The translations under genes and the position numbers were made by a program. 35,576 nucleotides of DNA from an uncultured Gammaproteobacteria bacterium (GTDB taxonomy: Bacteria > Patescibacteriota > Patescibacteriia > UBA9934 > GWF2-40-263): the NCBI GenBank assembly GCA_964471375.1, contig CAYYFM010000046.1, forward strand, positions 1-35,576. Direction: 5' to 3'. Every line of letters starts with the position of its first letter. Position 1 is the first letter of the stretch. Positions 596 through 14,994 of this stretch are shown here, one piece after another. Under the pieces are notes generated by a model. That model made no database searches. It was not told the origin of the DNA and saw only the letters and a program-made list of their open reading frames with translations.

Positions 596-2704
596 TTATC
601 GACTGCTCACATTGAGATCGATAGGAGCGTCAGGCACTGTTTCCCATGAGCTTGGTTCCATTGGGATTTGGAGATCGCGGATCGTACGCATCAATTCGAT
701 ATGACTACGAGCATCTTCGAGACGTTTTTGAAGGTCAACACGTTTGCTGGTTTCAATCCCAGGATTGTGTTTTGGATCGAGCGCCATACGCATAATCTTA
801 AAGTCTGCGAGTTTCTCCTCAAGAAGAGTACGTTGTTCTGCCGCTTCCATATTATTATACTCTTCTTTTCCCTGAACTCCATCCAAAATTTTGAGAGCCG
901 CCTTTAGATTTTCGTGTTTCGTGTTCACTGCCGCAATGGCATGTTCTAGTTTTAGACGCTCTCCTCCGTAAAAGTCAAAACTTCGAAGTTTCTCAATGGC
1001 GATGTCCCCTGCTTCTCCTGGATATGCTTCCTTGATTTTTCCAGAATCAGGAGTACGGGTTTTCATTTTCGAAACTTCAGGAGCAGCAGGAGTTGTTTTC
1101 GTTACTTCCGCAGATGGTGACTGAACAGGTTCGTTCAACCGCGACTCGATCGATGCGCGTTTGTACTGAACGGATTCACGAGGAGCGACCTCACTGCTTG
1201 CAGAGGGCTGAACAACATTATCTTGATGTCTCATTTCGTCGATCCCTTTCGCTAATCCTAACCCCGCGAGAATAACTGCGGCATATCTTCCAATTTTTTT
1301 CGCAACAGGAGATTGTTTGATCCATTTCCATACGGTCGGACGATCTTCGTCATTCTCCATGATAAATCCATCCCGACCGTTCTCATGGTGTGTGCTCGTT
1401 TGAAGTACGTTCCCTTCAGGGTCACGATTAACACGTTTGAGAGGTTTAAAATATGTCGTTTCACCTGACATTCCATCGCGTGCAGGGACGAGTGTTTTAT
1501 TACGGACCATGGTATCGATATTTGAGTCATTATCTGCTCCTGCAGGAAGATCAGGGGCATTGTCGACGTGTGCAATTTTATCAGTAATTTCAATTCCACG
1601 ATCCCAGTCGATATCGGCTTGTGGTCGAGGAATATCGTAACCATCGAGTTCCTTTCCACGCGGAACATTTCCGTCTGGGAAACGCTCATCGATGATCTGA
1701 ATTCCTGTTCGTTCAAGGTCACGATGTCCTTCACGTGCAATCGGTTCTTTTTCTTCTCGGAGCCGTGCCAGTGTTTTTGTATAAGCGAAATCTTTTTTGA
1801 GAAATTTTGGATCAGGTGTAGAGCCAGGAACTTCAAGATACATCGCCTCAAGCCCTTTTTTTGTTCCAAGGTTATACTGTGACGGTTCGATTCCGATTTC
1901 TGTAAGGGCTTCCGTGCGTTCTTTGAGCATTGCTTTTCCTTTGACAATCGCAGAATCAATATAATCTTCGAGCTTATTCAGCTCCTCGAGAGTTGATCCA
2001 CTGTGTTCTAATTTCCTTTCTGCCTTAATCATGCGAACCACTTCGCTACGATCCTTATTGAGCAGCTCTGTCCGCATGCTAATGGACGCAAAATCGCGAA
2101 GCACTCCCGTTTGCTCTGAATCGAGCTTTATGAGCCCAAGTTTTTCTGTACGAAGTGCGTCTCGTGATGCCTTACGCCCAAGATCGATTTGTGAAATATC
2201 AACTTCCTCAGCGGCAAGATCAGCTTCGATCGATTTCATCCCTTCTTTTGCTTGTCGCCACATGGATTTGGACCCCTCCGATTTATCTTTTGTCATGTGT
2301 GCATGCGCGGAATCAACCGCATCCAACCCATCAAGATAGGAACGCAAAATATCAGATTGAACTTGGTCAAGGCTTGTTGCGAATGCGGTAAGACCCATGC
2401 GTTCGTGCAGTGCTTTTTCAACATCTTTAGTTTGGGATTTTGCGACGTCTGCAACAATGACATCATGTCTCTGATTGATACGATTGGCGACATCCTGCCC
2501 TTTTGTACTCGCGTACATTTTTACAATTTCCGCGTAGGAATTTGAGATCCGTTCGACACGGTTATGACTCAAATCTTCACGTGTTGAACGTGCTTGTGCG
2601 GGTGCTTCTTTTGAAGTCGTTTCTGAAGTCGTTTCGCGTTTGCGAATCGACTTTGCTGAGTCGATAACGGCATGCATTTGTCGTTCGGGAGAATTGTGTG
2701 ACAT
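596..2704 (-). CDS. Large (about 700 aa) coiled-coil-rich protein with one central transmembrane helix, function unknown
   Basis: The ORF is 2.1 kb. It is highly charged and helical, with a single hydrophobic segment (RYAAVILAGLGLAKGI). I recognise no catalytic motif. The start is uncertain: ATG 2704 (MSHNSPERQ) or ATG 2740. Confidence 0.55.
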   Translation of the reverse strand: MSHNSPERQMHAVIDSAKSIRKRETTSETTSKEAPAQARSTREDLSHNRVERISNSYAEIVKMYASTKGQDVANRINQRHDVIVADVAKSQTKDVEKALHERMGLTAFATSLDQVQSDILRSYLDGLDAVDSAHAHMTKDKSEGSKSMWRQAKEGMKSIEADLAAEEVDISQIDLGRKASRDALRTEKLGLIKLDSEQTGVLRDFASISMRTELLNKDRSEVVRMIKAERKLEHSGSTLEELNKLEDYIDSAIVKGKAMLKERTEALTEIGIEPSQYNLGTKKGLEAMYLEVPGSTPDPKFLKKDFAYTKTLARLREEKEPIAREGHRDLERTGIQIIDERFPDGNVPRGKELDGYDIPRPQADIDWDRGIEITDKIAHVDNAPDLPAGADNDSNIDTMVRNKTLVPARDGMSGETTYFKPLKRVNRDPEGNVLQTSTHHENGRDGFIMENDEDRPTVWKWIKQSPVAKKIGRYAAVILAGLGLAKGIDEMRHQDNVVQPSASSEVAPRESVQYKRASIESRLNEPVQSPSAEVTKTTPAAPEVSKMKTRTPDSGKIKEAYPGEAGDIAIEKLRSFDFYGGERLKLEHAIAAVNTKHENLKAALKILDGVQGKEEYNNMEAAEQRTLLEEKLADFKIMRMALDPKHNPGIETSKRVDLQKRLEDARSHIELMRTIRDLQIPMEPSSWETVPDAPIDLNVSSR

Positions 2705-2820
2705 AAAAATAATATAAATTGATTTTATGATATCACACATTTACGCTTGACAAAAGAGGCACAAGTGTTTAGGGTGGAAAACTTGAGGGAGACACGGTGT
2801 TTCTATCAAGAAGGAGTCAA

Positions 2821-3295
2821 GATGAGTTCTGTCGCACACTTGCACGTACATGCTGGTGGAGCTGGAGCTTTCACAGAGGAGGATCTGTCGAATCGTCTGG
2901 TTCGCACGGATATCGCGATCATTCTTCCACGTCGACGCCATCATGAAGGTGATGCAAAGAGAGTTCTTCACGAAGCCGCCATGCTTGACGCAGCGCTTCC
3001 AGAAGGAATGACATGGACGAACGAATCGCTCCTCTGGTTGCATCACGAGTTGGAACGGTTCGAGCGGTGTCCGTCGAGTGCATGCCAACCGTATCTACGT
3101 GCGCGACGACAGTCTCTGTTTGCAATCGGTGTTCGTTCAACTAACGAGCAACTTGCATTTTTTGACTCTACCTGCAATCAGTATCTTCGCAAGTTGGGTC
3201 TGACATTGCCGACGCGGCCACGCCGAAACCTGTTGCATGCCGCGTTCCTGTTGTTGCTCGAAAAAGGCACACAGCATGTGAAGGAAAGTGTGTAA
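2821..3295 (+). CDS. Hypothetical Arg/His-rich protein (orphan, G+C-rich)
   Basis: ATG 2821 is preceded by GGAG 7 nt upstream (aaggagtcaagATG). The stop TAA overlaps the next ATG (TAATG at 3293-3297). No recognisable domain. Antisense ORFs also stay open here because of the high G+C, so the strand call rests on the RBS and the coupling. Confidence 0.4.
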
Positions 3296-3765
3296 TGCGT
3301 GACAGGACGAGTGGGATTGAGAAAACGGTTCGGGCTCTGGTTTATGAACGACATGTGACCGCGCAGGAAGGTGAGCAATTGTTGATTCACCTCCTCGCGA
3401 GTCGCGATCCAGGATTTTGGAACGACGATGCCTGTAAGCGGATTGCGGAGGATGTCCCGCGTCGACGTCATCTCCCAACCCACGAACACCATCGGTTTGT
3501 TGCAAGTGAACTTGATCAACTTTGCAACCCACATCATCCGAGAGGTTATCTTCTCGCAAAACGATGGCTCGGCGATTCACTTGAAGCGTTTGAAGCGGGT
3601 ATCCGATTCAACGCAGGACAAGCGCACCTGTTTCTTGCAGATAATCGCCTCGCCTATCTCACCTCCGTGTTCGTCCTCATCATCATGAGCGCAAATGCAC
3701 CGAGTGCTCTTCATCACGAACAGCTTTCTCCATTCCCACCTGTCTTCCGTCGCGGACGCACATAG
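3295..3765 (+). CDS. Hypothetical Arg/His-rich protein (orphan, G+C-rich)
   Basis: Translationally coupled to the preceding ORF through TAATG. It shares a PRRRH motif with that ORF, encoded by similar DNA (2927-2943 versus 3457-3473). No recognisable domain. Confidence 0.4.
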   Translation: MRDRTSGIEKTVRALVYERHVTAQEGEQLLIHLLASRDPGFWNDDACKRIAEDVPRRRHLPTHEHHRFVASELDQLCNPHHPRGYLLAKRWLGDSLEAFEAGIRFNAGQAHLFLADNRLAYLTSVFVLIIMSANAPSALHHEQLSPFPPVFRRGRT

Positions 3766-3807
3766 CATCTCGCGGCGTTTTTTGTTATACTGAAAAGGAT
3801 TTAGGGA

Positions 3808-4620
3808 ATGGAATTTAGGATGTGGGGAATTATATTTATGCTCGGTGAAGCGTTGCGGAAAAAATCTTTTGAACAGGAAACTGGTGAACAACCAGCTTTT
3901 CGTGTTGATGAACCGTTTGTTTCACCTGTTGCTCGACCACCGTTGAAAGAAACAATCAATGAGTACGAGGTGATTGTTGCTCGAGAATTGGCGAAAGGAC
4001 GCAATCCAGAATTGTATTGGCAGCAGTTGCAGAAGGAATACGATATTCGTTCTGATCGTCGACGTGATATGGTTTCTGCCGATGAGATCGGGTTTGAAGC
4101 GGGGAAGGAAGCAGATCTTACGCGTCTTATTCGATACGAGATGAACGCACTTTTGCCACGACTCGCTGCGTATCGTGTTCTGCGAGATGCAGGACGTTTT
4201 TCAACGGGTGAGAATTATCTTGTAAATCTTGACCGAAAACTCGTCCATGCTGAGCAGACCGCAGAATCTGCAGATGGGGATGAAACAGCTCTTCGAAGTG
4301 CGATTGAGAACACTCGAGTGTTACGAGCGCAAATTTCTGTCACAGAAAATATTCTCAAGAAACAAGATGGATGGAGAGCACTCCGCGTACAAGTAGCACA
4401 ACGTGACTCTGGATCTATTTTAGAAACACTCCCTCCGTCTGCGCTCGAACCAGCAACGTGGCGAGATGAATTGAATCAGCTGTATCAAGAACGCTCAAAG
4501 CTTCACTTTTGGCAGTTTTTGAAACGAGGTGAATTGGAAGTAAAAATTGCTGCTCTTTTGCGCCGTCAGGCCTATGAAGAAAAAAAGGCGAAGATGCTTG
4601 CTCAGGAACGGGCAAAATGA
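3808..4620 (+). CDS. Hypothetical soluble, helical/coiled-coil protein
   Basis: A 270-aa ORF that is charged and heptad-like toward the C-terminus (KIAALLRRQAYEEKKAKMLAQERAK). Alternative starts are at 3820 and 3838. No recognisable domain. Confidence 0.5.
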   Translation: MEFRMWGIIFMLGEALRKKSFEQETGEQPAFRVDEPFVSPVARPPLKETINEYEVIVARELAKGRNPELYWQQLQKEYDIRSDRRRDMVSADEIGFEAGKEADLTRLIRYEMNALLPRLAAYRVLRDAGRFSTGENYLVNLDRKLVHAEQTAESADGDETALRSAIENTRVLRAQISVTENILKKQDGWRALRVQVAQRDSGSILETLPPSALEPATWRDELNQLYQERSKLHFWQFLKRGELEVKIAALLRRQAYEEKKAKMLAQERAK

Positions 4621-4635
4621 TAGGGTTCTGGCATT

Positions 4636-6039
4636 ATGGCTGACCCAAAGTATCATCTTATTACCCTTGGATGTCAGATGAATAAAAACGACTCTGAACG
4701 GATGGACGCCATCTTGTCCGGGGTCGGTTTTTCGTCTACAGAAAATCGTGAGGAGGCGGATGTGATTTTGGTGAACACCTGTTCGGTTCGTCAGAGTGCT
4801 GAGGATCGTGTGTTTGGTCTGATGCATGAGTTTGCGTTACTAAAAGAAACACGGCCAAATTTGATTGTCGGTGTGACGGGGTGTATGCCAGGCCGTGATC
4901 GTGACGGGAAAATTCGTAAGCGACTCGCGACCGCAGATTTATATTTTCCGATTACAGACGTTCCTCAGTTGCCTCGCTGGATTGGAGAGATACGTCCGGA
5001 ATTGGTGAACAGCGCGGATATTGAAACAGATTATTTGAAAGTGATTCCAGAACGCCGCACATTTCGTCAAGGGTTTGTGACGATCCAGACTGGTTGCAAC
5101 AAGTTTTGCACGTACTGTGTTGTTCCATTTGCGCGAGGATTGGAGAAAAATCGTCCCGTTGCGGATATTCTGAAAGAGGTCCGTGATCTCGCAGAACATG
5201 GATGTGTAGAAGTGACACTGCTCGGACAAACCGTGAATTCATATCGCGCTCCTGATCCGGAAAACTGGTCGAAAGGAAATCCGTACAGCGATCCGTTCGC
5301 TTCTTTACTTTGGGAAGTAAATCAGGTGCCAGGAATTTCCCGTCTTCATTTTACCGCACCGCATCCGCTTCATATGACAGACGAAGCAATAGACGCGATG
5401 ACGCTTCCTGCACATCAGAACTATATTCACCTTCCTGTTCAAGCAGGGGATGATGAAGTGTTGCGTCGAATGAATCGTCGGTACACGACCGCTCAGTTTC
5501 TCGACGTCGTACACCGTTTGCGGGAAAAAATCCCAAACCTGGCGATTGGGACGGATATTATTGTTGGATTCTGTGGGGAAACACGCGAGCAGTATCTGAA
5601 AACCGCCGAGTTATACGAACAGGTACGCTTCGATATTTCATACACCGCACGTTATTCGACGCGTTCTGGAACCGCTGCCGCTCGCGCGTTCAAGGATGAT
5701 GTCGATCGCGATGAGAAAAAATGGCGCTGGCAACATCTCCAAGAAATTCAAGAGCGGATCGTGTACGAAAAAAATCAGGCGTATGTTGGTAAAACAGTTT
5801 CCGTTCTCGTCGAACGCCATGAGCCGCCAGTACCGACTGATGAGATGCTTGCGTTGGGAGGAAACATCACAGATCATCTCGCCAAACTCCCAGGTACCTG
5901 TCTTGGTAACTCTCGAGAAATGAAACTCGTTCGATTCTCCGGACCAAATGAACTCCTTGGCCAGATCGTCAATGTAAAAATTAACAAAGCAGAAAAATGG
6001 ATTCTCGAAGGGGTCAGGTCTTGCTTTTTGCTTTTATGA
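4636..6039 (+). CDS. miaB: tRNA (i6A37) methylthiotransferase MiaB (radical SAM)
   Basis: N-terminal UPF0004 motif ITLGCQMNKNDSE. Radical-SAM CNKFCTYCVVP (CxxxCxxC). C-terminal TRAM-like region GQIVNVKINKA. Confidence 0.93.
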   Translation: MADPKYHLITLGCQMNKNDSERMDAILSGVGFSSTENREEADVILVNTCSVRQSAEDRVFGLMHEFALLKETRPNLIVGVTGCMPGRDRDGKIRKRLATADLYFPITDVPQLPRWIGEIRPELVNSADIETDYLKVIPERRTFRQGFVTIQTGCNKFCTYCVVPFARGLEKNRPVADILKEVRDLAEHGCVEVTLLGQTVNSYRAPDPENWSKGNPYSDPFASLLWEVNQVPGISRLHFTAPHPLHMTDEAIDAMTLPAHQNYIHLPVQAGDDEVLRRMNRRYTTAQFLDVVHRLREKIPNLAIGTDIIVGFCGETREQYLKTAELYEQVRFDISYTARYSTRSGTAAARAFKDDVDRDEKKWRWQHLQEIQERIVYEKNQAYVGKTVSVLVERHEPPVPTDEMLALGGNITDHLAKLPGTCLGNSREMKLVRFSGPNELLGQIVNVKINKAEKWILEGVRSCFLLL

Positions 6040-10078: not shown

Positions 10079-10804
10079 TTAAGATTCAAGATTCAAGATT
10101 TTTGAAAGTAACTGTTTTGAGTGAGAAATGGATTCGTCGAGTGAACCAGCTGTGGAGAGAGAATGGATCGTTGTTCCTTTTGACGTGAACAGTTCTTTGA
10201 ACCAATCTGATCGGAAACGTTCGTCGACTTTTCTTAGGAAATCGAGATTTGCGAATACTCCTTTTGATTCTTCATCACGTTGCTTGAGACGTTCGACAGC
10301 GATTTCTGGACTGAGTTTGGTGAGGATGAGGTGATCAGGGGAGTATTGCATGGCAAGCGCATTGCCTGGCAGTTTCAGGAGATCTTCAAGTTGTATTCCT
10401 CCAGTCATGATCGGCTGGTAAACAATCGATGTGCACACCCCTCGGTCCTGGATGACTGTCATTCCGGCTCTTAGAGCCGGAATGATCAAACGGGTGTACA
10501 TGATTTCTCGATCGAGAGCGAAAGCATGGGCGAGAGACTCGCCACTGTACGGATGATCTGTCCGTGACAGTTCGAAGCGGATTGCGGCGCCGATCCATTG
10601 GCGAGTTGGCTCGTAGGTGAAGAAGACATTATGGTCAGATACATCGGTAAAGTTTGGAGGATCTGCGTGTGTTTTTGTCCATTCACGTAGGTCAAAGACT
10701 CGCCGTCCTTTTGCTCGTTCTTGTTCTTTTGCAACATGAAGCAAGGTGGATTTCCCACTGCCGGCGATCCCGTCGATCATGATAAACAGACCGTGTCGAG
10801 GCAT
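10079..10804 (-). CDS. tmk: Thymidylate (dTMP) kinase-family nucleotide kinase
   Basis: P-loop IDGIAGSGKSTLL. It also has a Tmk-like EPT...IR segment, a LID/DRY-like DRGVCTSIVYQ and PDHLILTKLSPEIAVERL. The start is set at ATG 10804 (MPRHGLFIMIDG), because the longer ORF overlaps dut. Confidence 0.8.
   Translation of the reverse strand: MPRHGLFIMIDGIAGSGKSTLLHVAKEQERAKGRRVFDLREWTKTHADPPNFTDVSDHNVFFTYEPTRQWIGAAIRFELSRTDHPYSGESLAHAFALDREIMYTRLIIPALRAGMTVIQDRGVCTSIVYQPIMTGGIQLEDLLKLPGNALAMQYSPDHLILTKLSPEIAVERLKQRDEESKGVFANLDFLRKVDERFRSDWFKELFTSKGTTIHSLSTAGSLDESISHSKQLLSKILNLES
10081..10101. repeat. Heptamer tandem repeat (AAGATTC)x3 at the 3' end of tmk
   Basis: Direct read: aagattc aagattc aagattt. 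It encodes the last codons (KILNLES*) on the minus strand. Confidence 0.8.
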
Positions 10805-10823: not shown

Positions 10824-11255
10824 TTAGCCAGTTGTTCCGTATCCACCGCGTGTTGGGGAGGAAAGGGATTCGACTTCGTTGAAATCTCCTCGGACAATCG
10901 GCACAAACAGTCCTTGGGCAATCCGCTCGCCTTTTTCAACGATATACGGAGCAGAACCTTCGTTTCGGACGGATAATTTTAGCTCATCCTCTGGACCGCA
11001 ATAGTCTTGATCTATGATTCCAATCCCGTTTGCAAGTGTGATCTGTTTTTTTGCGTTAGAAGAGCGTCCGGCAATGATCAGTCCATACCCAGGTGGAGTG
11101 CAAATCACCAGCCCGGTTGAAAAAAACACGGTTTCACCAGGTTGCATGGTTTTCCCTTCGCAAACCGCGATATCAAACGCAATAGCTCCAGCCGTTTTGT
11201 ACTCCGGAAACGCAACGTCCGGACGAATTCGTTTGATATCCACAGGGATGTTCAT
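10824..11255 (-). CDS. dut: dUTP diphosphatase (trimeric dUTPase)
   Basis: dUTPase motifs AGRSSNAKK, GIIDQDYCGPEDE and a C-terminal RGGYGTTG. Confidence 0.92.
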   Translation of the reverse strand: MNIPVDIKRIRPDVAFPEYKTAGAIAFDIAVCEGKTMQPGETVFFSTGLVICTPPGYGLIIAGRSSNAKKQITLANGIGIIDQDYCGPEDELKLSVRNEGSAPYIVEKGERIAQGLFVPIVRGDFNEVESLSSPTRGGYGTTG

Positions 11256-11324: not shown

Positions 11325-12158
11325 ATGACGACATTTGATCGAGTCTATCTCGACACTCTTGGACGTATTTATCGGGAAGGGGAGACTGTTCAAAGCGAAC
11401 GGACAGGTTTTTCGACGCGTGCGATCCCGGGAGTGACGTATGAGCTTCAGCCTGCGGGCGGTTTTCCGCTTTTGACGGTGCGGAAAATGTTTCCGAAGTT
11501 TTTTTGTGCAGAAACGGTTTGGTTTATTGCAGGGCACAAGCATGCAGGATTTTTGCAACAATTCACAAAAGGTTGGGACAGTTTTTTGGAAGAAGATGGG
11601 ACGGTCGAGACCGCCTACGGATACCGTTGGCGTCATCATTTCGGTCGCGATCAGTTAATCGATCTCGTCGAGCATCTACGCGAGGAGCCGTCGAGTCGGC
11701 AAGGGGTCGTGATGATGTGGGATGCTGCTTCGGACGGACTACGAGCTCCAAAAAAGAAAAATGTCCCATGTCCTTACACGTGGACCGTGAACATTATCGG
11801 AGGAAAGCTTAACTTACATATGATCATGCGCTCGAACGACATGGTGCTCGGAAACCCAAACGACACTGCTGACTTCGCTCTCTTGCAAGCCATGCTTGCG
11901 CAAGAGCTCGAAGTCGCGGTCGGAAAACTTACGATTTCAATTTCCCACGCTCATATTTATGAAAATCAGTTCGAGGCGGTCGAGGACATATTGTCACGAG
12001 AAGTGATTCCTCATGTGGAAATAAAATGTCGATTACCCGACCATGCTTTTCGTCGTGCACTTTCTGCTGATGCAACGCTTGTCGAAGACTTGATCCAAAT
12101 GTTTTCGTCTCAATATCAACCAGGACTACCGATGAAAAAAGTACAAATTGCCGTATGA
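11325..12158 (+). CDS. thyA: Thymidylate synthase (ThyA) family enzyme with Asp at the pyrimidine-specificity position
   Basis: It aligns without gaps to E. coli ThyA through the core: ERTG, FPLLTVRK, AETVWF, YGYRWR, DQL, PSSRQ, VPCP (catalytic Cys149), RSND, SHAHIY and the C-terminal KKVQIAV. The residue matching Asn177 is Asp180 (GNPNDTADFALL, codon 11862-11864). Confidence 0.85.
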   Translation: MTTFDRVYLDTLGRIYREGETVQSERTGFSTRAIPGVTYELQPAGGFPLLTVRKMFPKFFCAETVWFIAGHKHAGFLQQFTKGWDSFLEEDGTVETAYGYRWRHHFGRDQLIDLVEHLREEPSSRQGVVMMWDAASDGLRAPKKKNVPCPYTWTVNIIGGKLNLHMIMRSNDMVLGNPNDTADFALLQAMLAQELEVAVGKLTISISHAHIYENQFEAVEDILSREVIPHVEIKCRLPDHAFRRALSADATLVEDLIQMFSSQYQPGLPMKKVQIAV

Positions 12159-12664
12159 TCATTACCCTCATTGCCGCGATCAGTGCGGACGGTTTCATTG
12201 CACAAAGTGCGGATCAGCTGTCTTTTGACTGGACTTCAAAAGAGGACAAGCAGTTTTTTGTTTCTAAAACCAAAGAGATTGGGATCGTGGTCATGGGACG
12301 GAAGACATTCGAGACGTTTGGCAAGCCGCTTAAGGATCGACGTTTGATTGTTTTGACCAGTCAAATATTCCCTGAGCAAGCGCAGCGCGTCGAAGGGCTG
12401 GAGTTTACATCTGAATCCCCACTGGATCTCGTCACTCGCCTCGAAGCAGAAGGCATCACACAACTCGCGGTCTGTGGCGGAGCTACGATCTACTCACAGT
12501 TTCTGAGAGCAGGCCTTGTGAACGAACTGTATCTTACCGTTGAACCAGTCCTCTTCGGACAAGGAATTCTTCTCGCCCCAGATGGTGGTGCGATCCAAAT
12601 GAAATTACTCGATTCAAAGCAACTCGGCGAAAAATCCGTACTTCTTCATTTTTCCATTTTATAG
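12155..12664 (+). CDS. Dihydrofolate reductase-like protein (RibD C-terminal domain family)
   Basis: MIITLIAAISADGFIA...VVMGRKTFETFGKPLKDRRLIVLT...CGGATIYSQFLRAGLVNELYLTVEPVLFGQG. Its ATG overlaps the thyA TGA (ATGA at 12155-12158). Confidence 0.8.
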   Translation: MIITLIAAISADGFIAQSADQLSFDWTSKEDKQFFVSKTKEIGIVVMGRKTFETFGKPLKDRRLIVLTSQIFPEQAQRVEGLEFTSESPLDLVTRLEAEGITQLAVCGGATIYSQFLRAGLVNELYLTVEPVLFGQGILLAPDGGAIQMKLLDSKQLGEKSVLLHFSIL

Positions 12665-12670
12665 ACATGT

Positions 12671-13579
12671 ATGCCCGATTATCCTTACATGCCAACAGAC
12701 AGATCTCTCAAATACGTCTCACATGATGATGTATTTATGCTTGCCGCAGCCAAAGCTCGCACGGAGCAGTCGGGAGATACACTTTATCCGGTCGGAATCG
12801 CCCTTGTACGAGATGGGGAAGTGCTTGTGACAGCAGGGAACGGATTTAGTCGTGGAGCAGGAACCGTCCACATCTGTCCACGAGTTGTTTTAGATTGTCC
12901 GTCTGGGACAGGTTATGACTTGTGCACCCTCCACGATGCTCCGGGACACGCAGAGCAGATGGCGGTCAAAACGGCTGTTGAGCAGGGAATAGACCTTAGA
13001 GGAGCTGACGCGTACCTGTTCGGCCACTGGTGGGCTTGTGAGCCGTGTTGGACGGCGCTCATTGACGCAGGAATCCGTGATTTGTATGTGACGGACGATG
13101 CGCACGATCGATTTAGTCGCGAAAAGGTGTATGCAGAGACTCTGAAACCATCTGTACAATCATCGTACATTTCTGGTCCGATGACGAATATGCCAGAAGA
13201 TCAGCACATCCCCATGCGACAGCTGTATGAGTCGCTCGCAGACGCCTGCTTAGAAATCGGAATCAAACCGTACGTTCCGCATATGCACTGCGATCCTCGG
13301 AGTAACGATTGTCGAACGTCAGAAGAAGTGTGGCGTATTGACGTCGAACAGGTCCGTGCCGCAGATGTGCTCGTTGCGGATGTGACACACACTTCGCTCG
13401 GCGTCGGTGGCGAACTCGCTTATGCGCACATGGCAAATAAACCGATCGTGCTACTCTCACAAAAAAACACCCCTGTCTCCCGCTTTGTCCGCGGAAATCC
13501 AGCCGTGGCGTATCATATTGAATACGACGATCACGCATCAGCCTGTCGAATGTTGAAAAACGTTTTAAAACAATTATAG
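12671..13579 (+). CDS. Fusion protein: dCMP/cytidylate deaminase domain plus DNPH1/Rcl-like 2'-deoxynucleoside 5'-phosphate N-hydrolase domain
   Basis: The N-terminal half carries the zinc motifs HAEQMAV and CEPCWTALIDAGIRDLYV, which are dCMP-deaminase type. The C-terminal half (from about 13160) reads SYISGP...RIDVEQVRAADVLVADVTHTSLGVGGELAYAHMANKPIVLL...SRFVRG. This closely parallels Rcl/DNPH1 (VYFCGS...ADVVVAEVTQPSLGVGYELGRA..GKPILCLF...SAMIRG). Confidence 0.8.
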   Translation: MPDYPYMPTDRSLKYVSHDDVFMLAAAKARTEQSGDTLYPVGIALVRDGEVLVTAGNGFSRGAGTVHICPRVVLDCPSGTGYDLCTLHDAPGHAEQMAVKTAVEQGIDLRGADAYLFGHWWACEPCWTALIDAGIRDLYVTDDAHDRFSREKVYAETLKPSVQSSYISGPMTNMPEDQHIPMRQLYESLADACLEIGIKPYVPHMHCDPRSNDCRTSEEVWRIDVEQVRAADVLVADVTHTSLGVGGELAYAHMANKPIVLLSQKNTPVSRFVRGNPAVAYHIEYDDHASACRMLKNVLKQL

Positions 13580-13590
13580 ACACATTTTCT

Positions 13591-14355
13591 ATGTCTGAGC
13601 ACGAATCTTCTTCTTGTGCGTCATGTGGATACCCGTCGCATGCGGGGCATCAGGCTTCTTGTTCTGGGTCGATAAAAAAATCAAAGGCAGTAGGAGTAAC
13701 AGGAAAGCTACGAGCTCTGATGTTGGGAGGTCTACTGGCGGTTGGCGCAATGGCAAAGAACGCGCCAGAACCGAACGCACCAGAACCGGGTGTGAATACC
13801 CCTGTACATCATCGGGATACGGGTCCAACTGTTTCTCAAAAACAGATTGTTTCTGACGAGATCATCTCGGGTATTCTCGCGCAATCTACAGATGGCGAGT
13901 TTGGAGATGAGTCGGCAGGGATTGAATATCCAGATTATTCATTAGATTTTCGGACGATTCCTATTGGAAAAATGGTTTTGCGAACATTTCCTGATGCAAC
14001 TCGCGTTGACCCAAATAATCCATTTGACATCAATGTAGACAAGTCTCTTCTTGAGACTTTAAAAAAAGATCCAGAGTTGATGAAGGATTTTATGGAAACA
14101 ACACAAGATATTGTCTTTGAAAAGGATGAAAACACGCTACGTGTTTACCTGCCTGATACAGAAGGTTTTGATCTCACCTTAACAATGGCAAATAACGATG
14201 GACGATTTAATATCTATACAGGGGAAGATCGACTTGGTGAGGAAGGGGTCATTGCTTCGACACAAAATCCAGATGGATTTGCTCGAGAGTCTACCCAAGC
14301 GATGTTACGACATTATATTCAGGAAAAATTATTGAGGTATTTGCAAGGAGAATAG
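13591..14355 (+). CDS. Hypothetical single-pass membrane/secreted protein with a Cys/His-rich N-terminus
   Basis: The N-terminus reads CASCGYPSHAGHQASC, followed by a TM helix (LRALMLGGLLAVGAMA), a NAPEPNAPEP linker and a roughly 170-aa acidic ectodomain. Its 3' end overlaps the convergent dcd-like gene by 27 nt. Confidence 0.55.
   Translation: MSEHESSSCASCGYPSHAGHQASCSGSIKKSKAVGVTGKLRALMLGGLLAVGAMAKNAPEPNAPEPGVNTPVHHRDTGPTVSQKQIVSDEIISGILAQSTDGEFGDESAGIEYPDYSLDFRTIPIGKMVLRTFPDATRVDPNNPFDINVDKSLLETLKKDPELMKDFMETTQDIVFEKDENTLRVYLPDTEGFDLTLTMANNDGRFNIYTGEDRLGEEGVIASTQNPDGFARESTQAMLRHYIQEKLLRYLQGE
13756..13794 (+). repeat. PEP-rich linker repeat (15-nt tandem, NAPEP x2), related to the EPEEPKD cassette
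   Basis: gcgccagaaccgaac followed by gcaccagaaccgggt. It lies directly after the TM anchor, the same position as the cassette in the DUF3048 protein. Confidence 0.6.
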
Positions 14356-14994
14356 TTTTTTTATCTCATCCAGTTTTCCTTCTACAAGAGCGCGGCGTTC
14401 TTCGTTTTTATCTAATTTGAACGTTTGTGCTGATGCATCGCTATACTTTGCCGCGTCAACTCCATGTAAATTCGCTTCTTCTGGTGTGAGTGGAGATTTG
14501 AGTTCTTCGAAGATAACTTGGCAAACGCGTTCTCCAGGATACACACGTATCACCTGGTCACCTGCTTCATTTTTCATCGGGAAGATTAAGTTGCCTTTAT
14601 AGCCGACGTCGATGATGCCAGAAAGCGACAGATCAATTCCACGGCGGTTGGTTGACGTTCGCGGGAACAGAATGGCCATGAGATTTGGAGCGTTCATTTC
14701 AATCCGTTCGAGCGATGTTCCGATCACGAATTCGTTTGGGAGCAGTTCAAAAAATTGTCCAGGTTGTAGAATAACTTCGTCAAACTGTTCTGGATGAGCA
14801 GTGACATTGTCGATAGATACTTTGATCGCGCGGCGCCCTTTTTCATCGATCGTCCAATTTCTTGGAATTAAAAACTTATATCCGAGACGCAAATCAATCG
14901 CGTGCGGTTGCATTTGAAACTGATCGAGCTCTGGAGTGAGTCGAATTCCTCCAGACTTGATCTGTGAGACGATGTCTTGGCGAGATAAAATCAT
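14329..14994 (-). CDS. dcd: dCTP deaminase / dUTPase-superfamily protein (Dcd-like)
   Basis: MILSRQDI...GGIRLTP...HAIDLRLG, PRTSTNRRGI and IIDVGYKGNLIFPMKN align to Dcd (GRSSLARLGL, IDPGWSGCIVLEFYN). There is a C-terminal extension. The catalytic Glu position appears to be Pro (see findings). Confidence 0.8.
   Translation of the reverse strand: MILSRQDIVSQIKSGGIRLTPELDQFQMQPHAIDLRLGYKFLIPRNWTIDEKGRRAIKVSIDNVTAHPEQFDEVILQPGQFFELLPNEFVIGTSLERIEMNAPNLMAILFPRTSTNRRGIDLSLSGIIDVGYKGNLIFPMKNEAGDQVIRVYPGERVCQVIFEELKSPLTPEEANLHGVDAAKYSDASAQTFKLDKNEERRALVEGKLDEIKKLFSLQIPQ

Follow-up and report, generated by a model that had tools for sequence, protein, structure and literature searches.

The contig CAYYFM010000046.1 (35,576 nucleotides, hereafter the window) encodes, at positions 12,671–13,579, a protein in which a zinc deaminase of the 2′-deoxycytidine 5′-monophosphate (dCMP) deaminase family is joined to a DNPH1/Rcl-type N-glycosidase domain. 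We tentatively propose, at a probability of about 0.45, that this fusion is the bifunctional last enzyme of a methylate-first, deaminate-later thymidylate pathway in Candidatus Uhrbacteria and related Patescibacteria, and that its C-terminal domain (C-domain) hydrolyses an off-pathway deoxynucleoside monophosphate (dNMP). To our knowledge, all cells are regarded as making thymidylate (dTMP) from deoxyuridylate (dUMP), with ThyA or ThyX as the enzyme. Coordinated changes across the lineage, comprising an Asp-type ThyA homolog that lacks the specificity His, a Dcd-like protein devoid of its catalytic Glu, and a special deaminase that is always present, predict a route that is independent of dUMP and proceeds through 5-methyl-dCMP. 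The observations concern domain identities, conservation of catalytic residues, gene order, and covariation across genomes, from which every substrate assignment is inferred.

A deaminase and a DNPH1-type domain in one reading frame

The fusion is a genuine two-domain protein, conserved in ultra-small Patescibacteria and consisting of a deaminase and a DNPH1-type domain. Its open reading frame (ORF) is translated in one frame of 302 codons without a break. Moreover, a protein search returned 186 relatives, and among the 120 that were listed, 92 are full-length two-domain proteins of 44–84% identity, originating from Logan, JGI, ENA, and NCBI assemblies; all residue counts given below were taken over these 92 homologs. 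In addition, a GTDB scan with one genome per species yielded 170 relatives, of which 80 loci were kept, 39 of them with an intact C-domain motif. An assembly-derived joining of two genes, which the initial annotation of this ORF had named as a possible refutation, is ruled out by the many independent full-length homologs in separate assemblies. Pfam matches above cut-off and profile matches to PDB sequences agree on both domains, as had been annotated, Foldseek agrees on the C-domain, and the AlphaFold2 model built on the 92 homologs reaches a pLDDT of 94.9 and a pTM of 0.88.

The annotator had been unaware of any characterisation of such a fusion. Likewise, our literature searches on the fusion, on thymidylate variants in the candidate phyla radiation, and on a cellular 5-methyl-dCMP deaminase returned no describing paper, and PHROGs labels the domains only generically as ‘dCMP deaminase’ and ‘NDT’ (nucleoside 2-deoxyribosyltransferase). 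The fusion is thus an undescribed variant of known enzyme kinds. A fold search in BFVD for a viral two-domain equivalent gave nothing convincing, returning single-domain NDT or dCMP-deaminase matches and one weak full-length alignment (A0A8S5VIY1, 294 residues, TM 0.34–0.35).

The N-terminal deaminase domain

Pfam dCMP_cyt_deam_1 (PF00383) matches fusion residues 18–140 with 38 bits against a cut-off of 25, and both zinc motifs annotated in the N-terminal ~160 residues are found (Table 1). When the family profile of this N-terminal domain (N-domain) is compared with PDB sequences, dCMP deaminase 2hvv ranks best (E = 6e-12), followed by 4p9c, DCTD (2w4l), and T4 Cd (1vq2), with TadA and RibD behind these mononucleotide dCMP deaminases. 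The score against the ComEB equivalog TIGR02571 (NCBIfam) is 22.3 bits, below the cut-off of 219. Ala replaces the usual Pro before C123, and H119-W120-W121 precede CEPC, resulting in the family-specific motif G118-H-W-W-x-C-x-x-C-W; further, the domain carries a Cys/His-rich insertion formed by C69, C76, C85, and H88. On these matches and motifs, we class the N-domain as a divergent dCMP-deaminase subfamily with a GHWWxC motif.

On IMG/VR contigs (L086–L104, each at ~4001–4400), the N-domain profile also picked out 19 small phage deaminases of 90–150 residues, which share the insertion signature CPR…G.GY.LC…HAE…GH.Y.C..C. The GHWW motif and a ThyA gene within 4 kb are absent for all 19 deaminases of this viral-contig scan, and they are not informative as a guide to the role of the N-domain.

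The C-terminal DNPH1-like domain

The C-terminal half matches Pfam Nuc_deoxyrib_tr (PF05014) at residues 183–269 with 36.2 bits (cut-off 28.8). Its family profile finds DNPH1 first among PDB sequences (E = 4e-11), then BcmB (1.6e-7), MilB (8e-6), BlsM (3e-5), and the NDTs, which places it in the NDT/DNPH1 superfamily, where failure to match had been suggested as a second refutation. Consistently, Foldseek of the modelled C-domain retrieves MilB and human DNPH1 with target-normalised TM values of 0.72–0.80. For the segment ADVLVADVTHTSLGVGGELAYAHMANKPIVLL, corresponding to fusion residues 231–262, the alignment to rat Rcl and human DNPH1 is exactly the one originally written.

In DNPH1, Y24 belongs to the catalytic triad, D80 is the general acid, E104 is the nucleophile, and S98 and S128′ bind the 5′-phosphate, whereby S128 is donated by the partner subunit of a homodimer that shares its active site and cleaves dNMPs to base and deoxyribose 5-phosphate; H56 contacts O2 of the base, and the two phosphate serines set nucleoside monophosphate hydrolases apart from nucleoside transferases (PMC10603095). 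In the alignment, all of these positions have counterparts in the fusion (Table 1). The initial annotation correctly recognised the catalytic Glu (E248) and the Y-x-x-G motif (Y166–G169), while its ‘Ser-rich phosphate site’ comes down to two conserved serines, S242 and S270. Moreover, M171 and V220 correspond to the base-sandwich residues I29 and I76 in the profile alignment.

Two of these positions bear on the substrate. MilB has F17 at the position of Y24, which goes along with ribose preference, and a Glu at the H56 position for cytosine (PMC10603095). Accordingly placed in the alignment, Tyr rather than Phe at residue 166 points to a deoxyribo substrate, and H204 in place of the cytosine-recognising Glu of MilB suggests a base other than cytosine. 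Within the family, covarying features separate two subclasses: subclass 1, which includes the window protein, combines a ‘PH.H[ST]DP’ loop with the Asp, and subclass 2 has a ‘P[HF]RDN.EN’ loop together with Trp-[Ala/Ser/Thr] replacing the Asp.

Specificity residues of the neighbouring ThyA and Dcd-like proteins

The ThyA homolog of the window aligns well with genuine thymidylate synthases. As the initial annotation had noticed, a cytosine-type residue occupies its specificity position, namely Asp180 at the site of E. coli Asn177. The classical substitution N177D redirects thymidylate synthase towards methylation of dCMP, and cytosine-modifying homologs differ from uracil-methylating ones at positions 147 and 177 (PMC8670742). 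A survey of the suggested co-occurrence revealed Asp at this position in 64 of 64 readable ThyA neighbours of the deaminase family, including a subtype of 29% identity with the motif LPFDIVAH, and His147 in none of the 64 (55 Pro, 5 Tyr, the rest unreadable). Since no Asn-type ThyA occurs in the 64 readable cases, ThyA plus deaminase must be a productive dTMP route and not a waste route. Among phages, five of seven Asp-type ThyA homologs make 5-methyl-dCMP, and dCMP-deaminase-family genes adjoining Asp-type ThyA are selective for 5-methylcytosine (5mC) and supply thymidine nucleotides in XP12-like phages (bioRxiv 10.1101/2024.12.05.627091).

The Dcd-like protein is altered analogously. Pro replaces the catalytic Glu of deoxycytidine triphosphate (dCTP) deaminase in all ~60 loci, while the nucleotide-binding Ser and Arg as well as the dUTPase-type Asp are retained. 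Because the deaminase Glu is missing, the protein cannot make deoxyuridine triphosphate by the known mechanism, and in the simplest reading of its residues it is probably a dCTP pyrophosphatase instead of a deaminase. The third neighbour, the dihydrofolate reductase (DHFR) gene folA, is coupled to thyA and fused to the deaminase in some relatives, an arrangement that speaks for a reductive methyl transfer with dihydrofolate as product and against hydroxymethylation.

Related clusters as natural controls

When the C-domain alone was searched against representatives at 50% identity, 788 families were retrieved, mostly stand-alone proteins of 130–170 residues. Several of them lie in thymidylate clusters and serve as natural controls. 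Cluster L108 encodes a canonical ThyA (His and Asn), no deaminase, a long Dcd that bears the Glu, and a stand-alone DNPH1-like protein (5001–5423) between thyA and folA. In L110, which likewise has a canonical ThyA (His and Asn), the dCMP deaminase is canonical and of the LFPC type, Dcd is without the Glu, and the DNPH1-like gene stands alone (5001–5426); the stand-alone proteins of both clusters comprise 140–141 residues. L111 has an Asp-type ThyA, a Dcd without the Glu, and a deaminase of the amidohydrolase superfamily (TRZ/ATZ, MtaD-like) to which the DNPH1-like domain is fused; this deaminase takes the place of the zinc deaminase without being homologous to it. Hence, Asp-type ThyA is always accompanied by a non-canonical deaminase, either of the GHWW type or, in L111, of the amidohydrolase type, and a deaminase has been joined to a DNPH1-like module in two non-homologous forms. 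With stand-alone homologs sitting beside canonical, dUMP-using ThyA, dUMP was downgraded as a general target of the DNPH1-like module.

These clusters bear on a conventional explanation, in which the N-domain converts dCMP to dUMP, ThyA methylates dUMP in spite of its Asp, and the C-domain serves unrelated dNMP salvage or catabolism for carbon and energy. The N-domain profile matches are indeed ordinary dCMP deaminases, dut and a dcd-like gene lie in the cluster, and in L106 a stand-alone DNPH1-like gene has a phosphoribosyltransferase and a nucleoside phosphorylase as neighbours. However, Asp at position 177 and the lost His147 are the two hallmarks of ThyA homologs specific for cytosine, no deaminase Glu is present in the Dcd-like protein, which thus cannot form deoxyuridine triphosphate by the known mechanism, and the canonical-ThyA cluster L110 uses an LFPC-type and not a GHWW-type deaminase, making the conventional route very unlikely.

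Further arrangements of the module were observed. The amidohydrolase fusion (L111, 5001–6167; P0269, 581 residues, MEK7158683.1) joins a TRZ/ATZ, MtaD, or 8-oxoguanine-deaminase-like amidohydrolase to a DNPH1-like domain in another Asp-type thyA-folA cluster. Upstream of the stand-alone DNPH1-like gene of L107, at a distance of 4 kb, a large protein with MtrA, Thymidylat_synt, and pterin-binding (DUF4346) domains is encoded (1–1119). In L109 (1161–5510), a Dcd with the Glu, a ThyA-like protein of 456 residues, a membrane-anchored Dcd-like protein of 273 residues, and a DNPH1-like gene adjoin a DrmE (DISARM) gene; this cluster possibly represents a form of the module that is mobile or linked to defence.

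Distribution of the fusion and decay of the C-domain

Nearly all full-length homologs are labelled Candidatus Uhrbacteria or Patescibacteria. Divergent fusions of 30–36% identity occur in Moraniibacteriota-labelled and Saccharibacteria-labelled genomes, which indicates that the fusion is old. Many GTDB records of Uhrbacteria-type loci (L010, L014, L016, L019, L021, L076, and others) are titled ‘uncultured Gammaproteobacteria bacterium’, and these titles appear to be mislabelled.

Beyond the intact forms, the 80 species loci include four full-length proteins with a degenerate C-domain, 21 with a tail of ~110 residues, seven with a tail of ~80 residues, seven deaminase-only proteins, and two partial ones. 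In the alignment, the 238-residue forms retain the first β-α-β unit together with the final strand and helix (…ACRQFKNVLRQL), with the catalytic core deleted. Where the C-domain decays, the deaminase domain and the neighbouring genes are always kept. Thus, with degradation or loss in about half of the species loci, catalysis by the C-domain is dispensable and any substrate named for it is conjectural; judging from the loci compared, the C-domain is an accessory, dispensable part of the fusion.

This pattern raises the question of whether the C-domain is a hydrolase in vivo at all, or a regulatory or oligomerisation module, or a transferase that moves deoxyribose 5-phosphate between bases (e.g., in thymine/uracil salvage). 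The general acid is absent in 60 of 92 homologs, where a W-[AST] helix covaries with the P[HF]RDN.EN loop, and the first β-α-β unit and last helix (ACRxxKNVLKQL) that survive deletion of the core in truncated forms suggest a structural role. Additionally, as DmtZ demonstrates, natural DNPH1-like enzymes can act as deoxyribose 5-phosphate transferases and can have Asn instead of the acid, and the module recurs in thymidylate clusters of either route. Yet Glu, Tyr, both Ser, and His are kept in every domain-intact form, which a purely structural role would not demand, and the context suggests no acceptor base. We regard a non-hydrolytic C-domain as rather unlikely.

Operon and chromosomal setting

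The fusion is the last gene of a compact operon, in which the start of folA overlaps the stop of thyA (ATGA) and the fusion follows six bases after folA. The initial annotation, which had placed the fusion directly after the ThyA-like gene, overlooked this intervening DHFR gene. The order thyA-folA-fusion is syntenic in ~80 species loci. The wider cluster, consisting of tmk and dut, thyA, folA, and the fusion, and the dcd-like gene, lies between gatB and rplA-rplK-nusG and is syntenic across the clade. The genes for the deaminase, Asp-type ThyA, DHFR, Tmk, and the Dcd-like protein form a housekeeping cluster with a fixed chromosomal position by rplA-rplK-nusG. The remainder of the window is ordinary chromosomal sequence of the candidate phyla radiation.

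Table 1. Coordinates of the fusion, its motifs, and the neighbouring genes in the window
Feature	Position	Strand	Basis or conservation
Deaminase–DNPH1-like two-domain ORF, 302 residues + stop	12671..13579	+	third gene of thyA-folA-fusion operon
N-domain, residues 1–158, dCMP-deaminase-family zinc deaminase	12671..13144	+	Pfam, PDB profile matches, invariant residues
H93-A-E95, zinc ligand and catalytic Glu	12947..12955	+	H93 and E95 invariant in 92 sequences
C123-E-P-C126, two Cys zinc ligands	13037..13048	+	C123 and C126 invariant
C-domain, residues 159–302, DNPH1/Rcl-type 2′-deoxynucleoside 5′-phosphate N-glycosidase fold	13145..13576	+	Pfam, PDB profile, Foldseek
Y166-I-S-G169, triad Tyr (DNPH1 Y24)	13166..13177	+	Y in 89/92 homologs
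P203-H204, His aligned with DNPH1 H56	13277..13282	+	H in 80/92 homologs
D224, DNPH1 general acid D80	13340..13342	+	present in this fusion, in only 32/92 family members
T241-S-L-G-V-G-G-E248, phosphate-binding S242 (DNPH1 S98) and nucleophile E248 (DNPH1 E104)	13391..13414	+	S 91/92, E 91/92, G246 92/92
S270, second phosphate-binding Ser (DNPH1 S128)	13478..13480	+	S or T in 84/92
ThyA homolog, Asp180 at E. coli Asn177, Pro150 at E. coli His147; predicted dCMP C5-methyltransferase	11325..12158	+	first operon gene; alignment
DHFR (folA)	12155..12664	+	fused to deaminase-NDT protein in some relatives
Dcd-like protein, dUTPase superfamily, candidate dCTP pyrophosphatase	14329..14994	-	catalytic Glu of dCTP deaminase (E. 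coli E138) absent: TLE to IFP
dUTPase	10824..11255	-	family match
dTMP kinase (Tmk)	10079..10804	-	TIGR00041, 88.3 bits (cut-off 83.25); start probably ATG at 10804

This setting bears on the purpose of the fusion. The initial annotation had suggested a channelled system for sanitising or turning over modified pyrimidine nucleotides. On such a model, the deaminase would turn 5-hydroxymethyl- or 5-methyl-dCMP made by ThyA into the uracil-type nucleotide and the C-domain would hydrolyse the product, such that no dTMP is made. The order of activities is the same as in human DCTD followed by DNPH1, the window protein carries the full set of DNPH1 catalytic residues, and a base of the uracil type would go well with His at the H56 position; moreover, DmtZ-DutZ provides a precedent for a DNPH1-like domain fused to its substrate-making enzyme (PMC12884076). 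A sanitising purpose is nevertheless unlikely, as the cluster is of a housekeeping kind, includes DHFR as well as a bona fide Tmk, and keeps to one chromosomal site. Asn-type ThyA is found in 0 of 64 readable loci, so ThyA and the deaminase must give dTMP, and folate would be spent futilely on a modified nucleotide that is merely destroyed. In addition, about half of the species loci have lost the hydrolase domain or carry it in degraded form, whereas the deaminase and Asp-type ThyA are always retained, and the DNPH1-like module also occurs as a separate gene in canonical-ThyA clusters. What survives of the suggestion is a plausible clean-up by the C-domain, which would be secondary to the main task of the system; the purpose of the fusion is probably biosynthetic.

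Triple fusions of DHFR, deaminase, and DNPH1-like domain (P0068; P0091, equal to L105 5001–6422) comprise 473–481 residues and directly follow thyA. Between the fusion and the dcd-like gene, an ORF at 13591–14355 (+) encodes 254 residues with a Cys/His-rich N-terminus and a hydrophobic segment; it has no family match and is absent from that position in L003. Elsewhere in the window, 596–2740 (-) and 2747–4620 (+) contain long ORFs of 714, 182, 156, and 270 residues without Pfam match.

Discussion

In the proposed thymidylate pathway, the Glu-less Dcd-like protein would first hydrolyse dCTP to dCMP, which the Asp180/Pro150 ThyA homolog would methylate to 5-methyl-dCMP with release of dihydrofolate. 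The translationally coupled DHFR would recycle the dihydrofolate, the N-terminal zinc deaminase of the fusion would convert 5-methyl-dCMP to dTMP, and Tmk would phosphorylate dTMP to thymidine diphosphate. In the C-domain, Glu248 would act as nucleophile assisted by Tyr166 and Asp224, while Ser242 and Ser270 would hold the 5′-phosphate. Its target is most likely an off-pathway uracil-type deoxypyrimidine monophosphate, such as 5-hydroxymethyl-dUMP or dUMP, arising from side reactions of the same enzymes, which would be cleaved to the free base and deoxyribose 5-phosphate and thereby kept out of DNA. As the module is also present in clusters where dUMP is wanted, 5-hydroxymethyl-dUMP or a similar aberrant product is favoured over dUMP.

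Several observations weigh against this assignment. The count of 64 of 64 Asp-type ThyA proteins refers to neighbours at the locus and not to whole genomes, where a second, canonical ThyA or a ThyX could lie. The dUTPase and Dcd-like genes in the cluster would also fit a dUMP route, and mSCD-B5, the sole characterised phage deaminase of this kind, uses the triphosphate and not the monophosphate (bioRxiv 10.1101/2024.12.05.627091). For the C-domain, the general acid D224 is kept in only 32 of the 92 full-length homologs, DNPH1 R30, which contacts the base via water, is not conserved (Thr172 in the fusion, by alignment only), and stand-alone DNPH1-like homologs in canonical-ThyA clusters speak against dUMP as a universal target. 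Moreover, about half of the species loci show a degraded, truncated, or missing C-domain, and the C-domain evolves faster than the N-domain, with a mean pairwise identity of 46% vs 60%.

A route to dTMP via 5-methyl-dCMP has so far been documented only for phages with 5mC-substituted DNA. The cluster could be pictured as a complete cellular module of the XP12 type, comprising a Glu-less Dcd-like dCTPase, a dCMP methylase, DHFR, a deaminase, a DNPH1-like hydrolase, a dNMP kinase, and a dUTPase. In addition to dTMP synthesis through 5-methyl-dCMP, bulk 5-methylcytosine would then replace cytosine in DNA, and the fusion would remove unmodified deoxycytidine nucleotides via dCMP, dUMP, and uracil. 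Ordinary short-read assemblies are blind to a replacement of cytosine by 5-methylcytosine. The gene pairing is that of these phages, whereas the locus is a cellular housekeeping one, and we consider such a module extremely improbable.

If the methylate-first pathway is correct, the fusion would be the terminal enzyme of the 5-methyl-dCMP route, joined to a proofreading domain of the DNPH1 type. Bacteria would then offer a model for DCTD and DNPH1, a pair of interest to cancer pharmacology, and the N-domain family of the fusion would be a candidate new source of 5mC-selective deaminases. Metabolic reconstruction of the candidate phyla radiation would be affected as well, where these genes are now read as an ordinary set of thyA, dcd, and comEB. 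The fusion is of interest mainly as a marker of what is probably a non-canonical route to thymidylate in cellular organisms.

Comparison with known systems

DNPH1/Rcl of human and rat is the closest solved relative of the C-domain in the profile comparison. Both share the fold, the PSLGVGxE nucleophile motif, the Tyr/Asp/Glu triad, the two phosphate serines, the His aligned at the H56 position, and the hydrophobic base sandwich, and DNPH1 is the best profile match. In contrast, identity is only ~25%, DNPH1 stands alone while the C-domain is fused to a deaminase, and the fusion differs by Thr172 in place of R30, an Asp that varies within the family, and a bacterial thymidylate-operon setting.

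MilB, BcmB, and BlsM, N-glycosidases of CMP and hydroxymethyl-CMP (CMP, cytidine monophosphate) in nucleoside-antibiotic pathways, belong to the same superfamily, and MilB is the top Foldseek match (target-normalised TM 0.76–0.79). As in the window, the MilB glycosidase is encoded together with a ThyA homolog of unusual pyrimidine specificity, the CMP hydroxymethylase MilA (PMC5175136). However, the sequence match is weaker (1.6e-7 to 3e-5), MilB has Phe where the fusion has Tyr and Glu where it has His, and MilB-type pathways yield a free modified base as product and need neither DHFR nor Tmk.

The phage enzyme DmtZ is a DNPH1-like hydrolase of deoxyadenosine monophosphate (dAMP) and a deoxyribose-5-phosphate transferase, occurring alone or fused to a dUTPase-like enzyme (PMC12884076). 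DmtZ-DutZ thus sets a precedent for the fusion of a DNPH1-like module to a nucleotide enzyme, and in these Z-genome phages the domain, alone or fused, likewise removes or reroutes a dNMP. Its Tyr/Asn/Glu triad indicates that the acid position can vary. Unlike the window protein, DmtZ-DutZ has a dUTPase-like triphosphatase as partner, specificity for dAMP, a phage origin, and an N-terminal NDT domain.

The N-domain resembles the dCMP deaminases ComEB, T4 Cd, and DCTD in its HAE and CxxC zinc site and its G-N-G motif, and the Streptococcus mutans dCMP deaminase in the Cys/His-rich insertion before HAE. Whereas these enzymes usually carry [TA]-L-[FS]-P-C, the fusion family has an invariant G-H-W-W-x-C and is always found beside an Asp-type ThyA. 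Typical dCMP deaminases act on dCMP under allosteric control by dCTP and dTTP, and for the N-domain the gene context suggests 5-methyl-dCMP instead.

Finally, XP12-like phages with mSCD-B5 are likened here by their description. They differ from the window in having 5mC-substituted phage DNA instead of a cellular housekeeping locus, and no DNPH1-like domain is reported for them. They share with it the same gene pairing and the same proposed logic, in which 5-methyldeoxycytidine nucleotides are made and part of them is deaminated to thymidine nucleotides.

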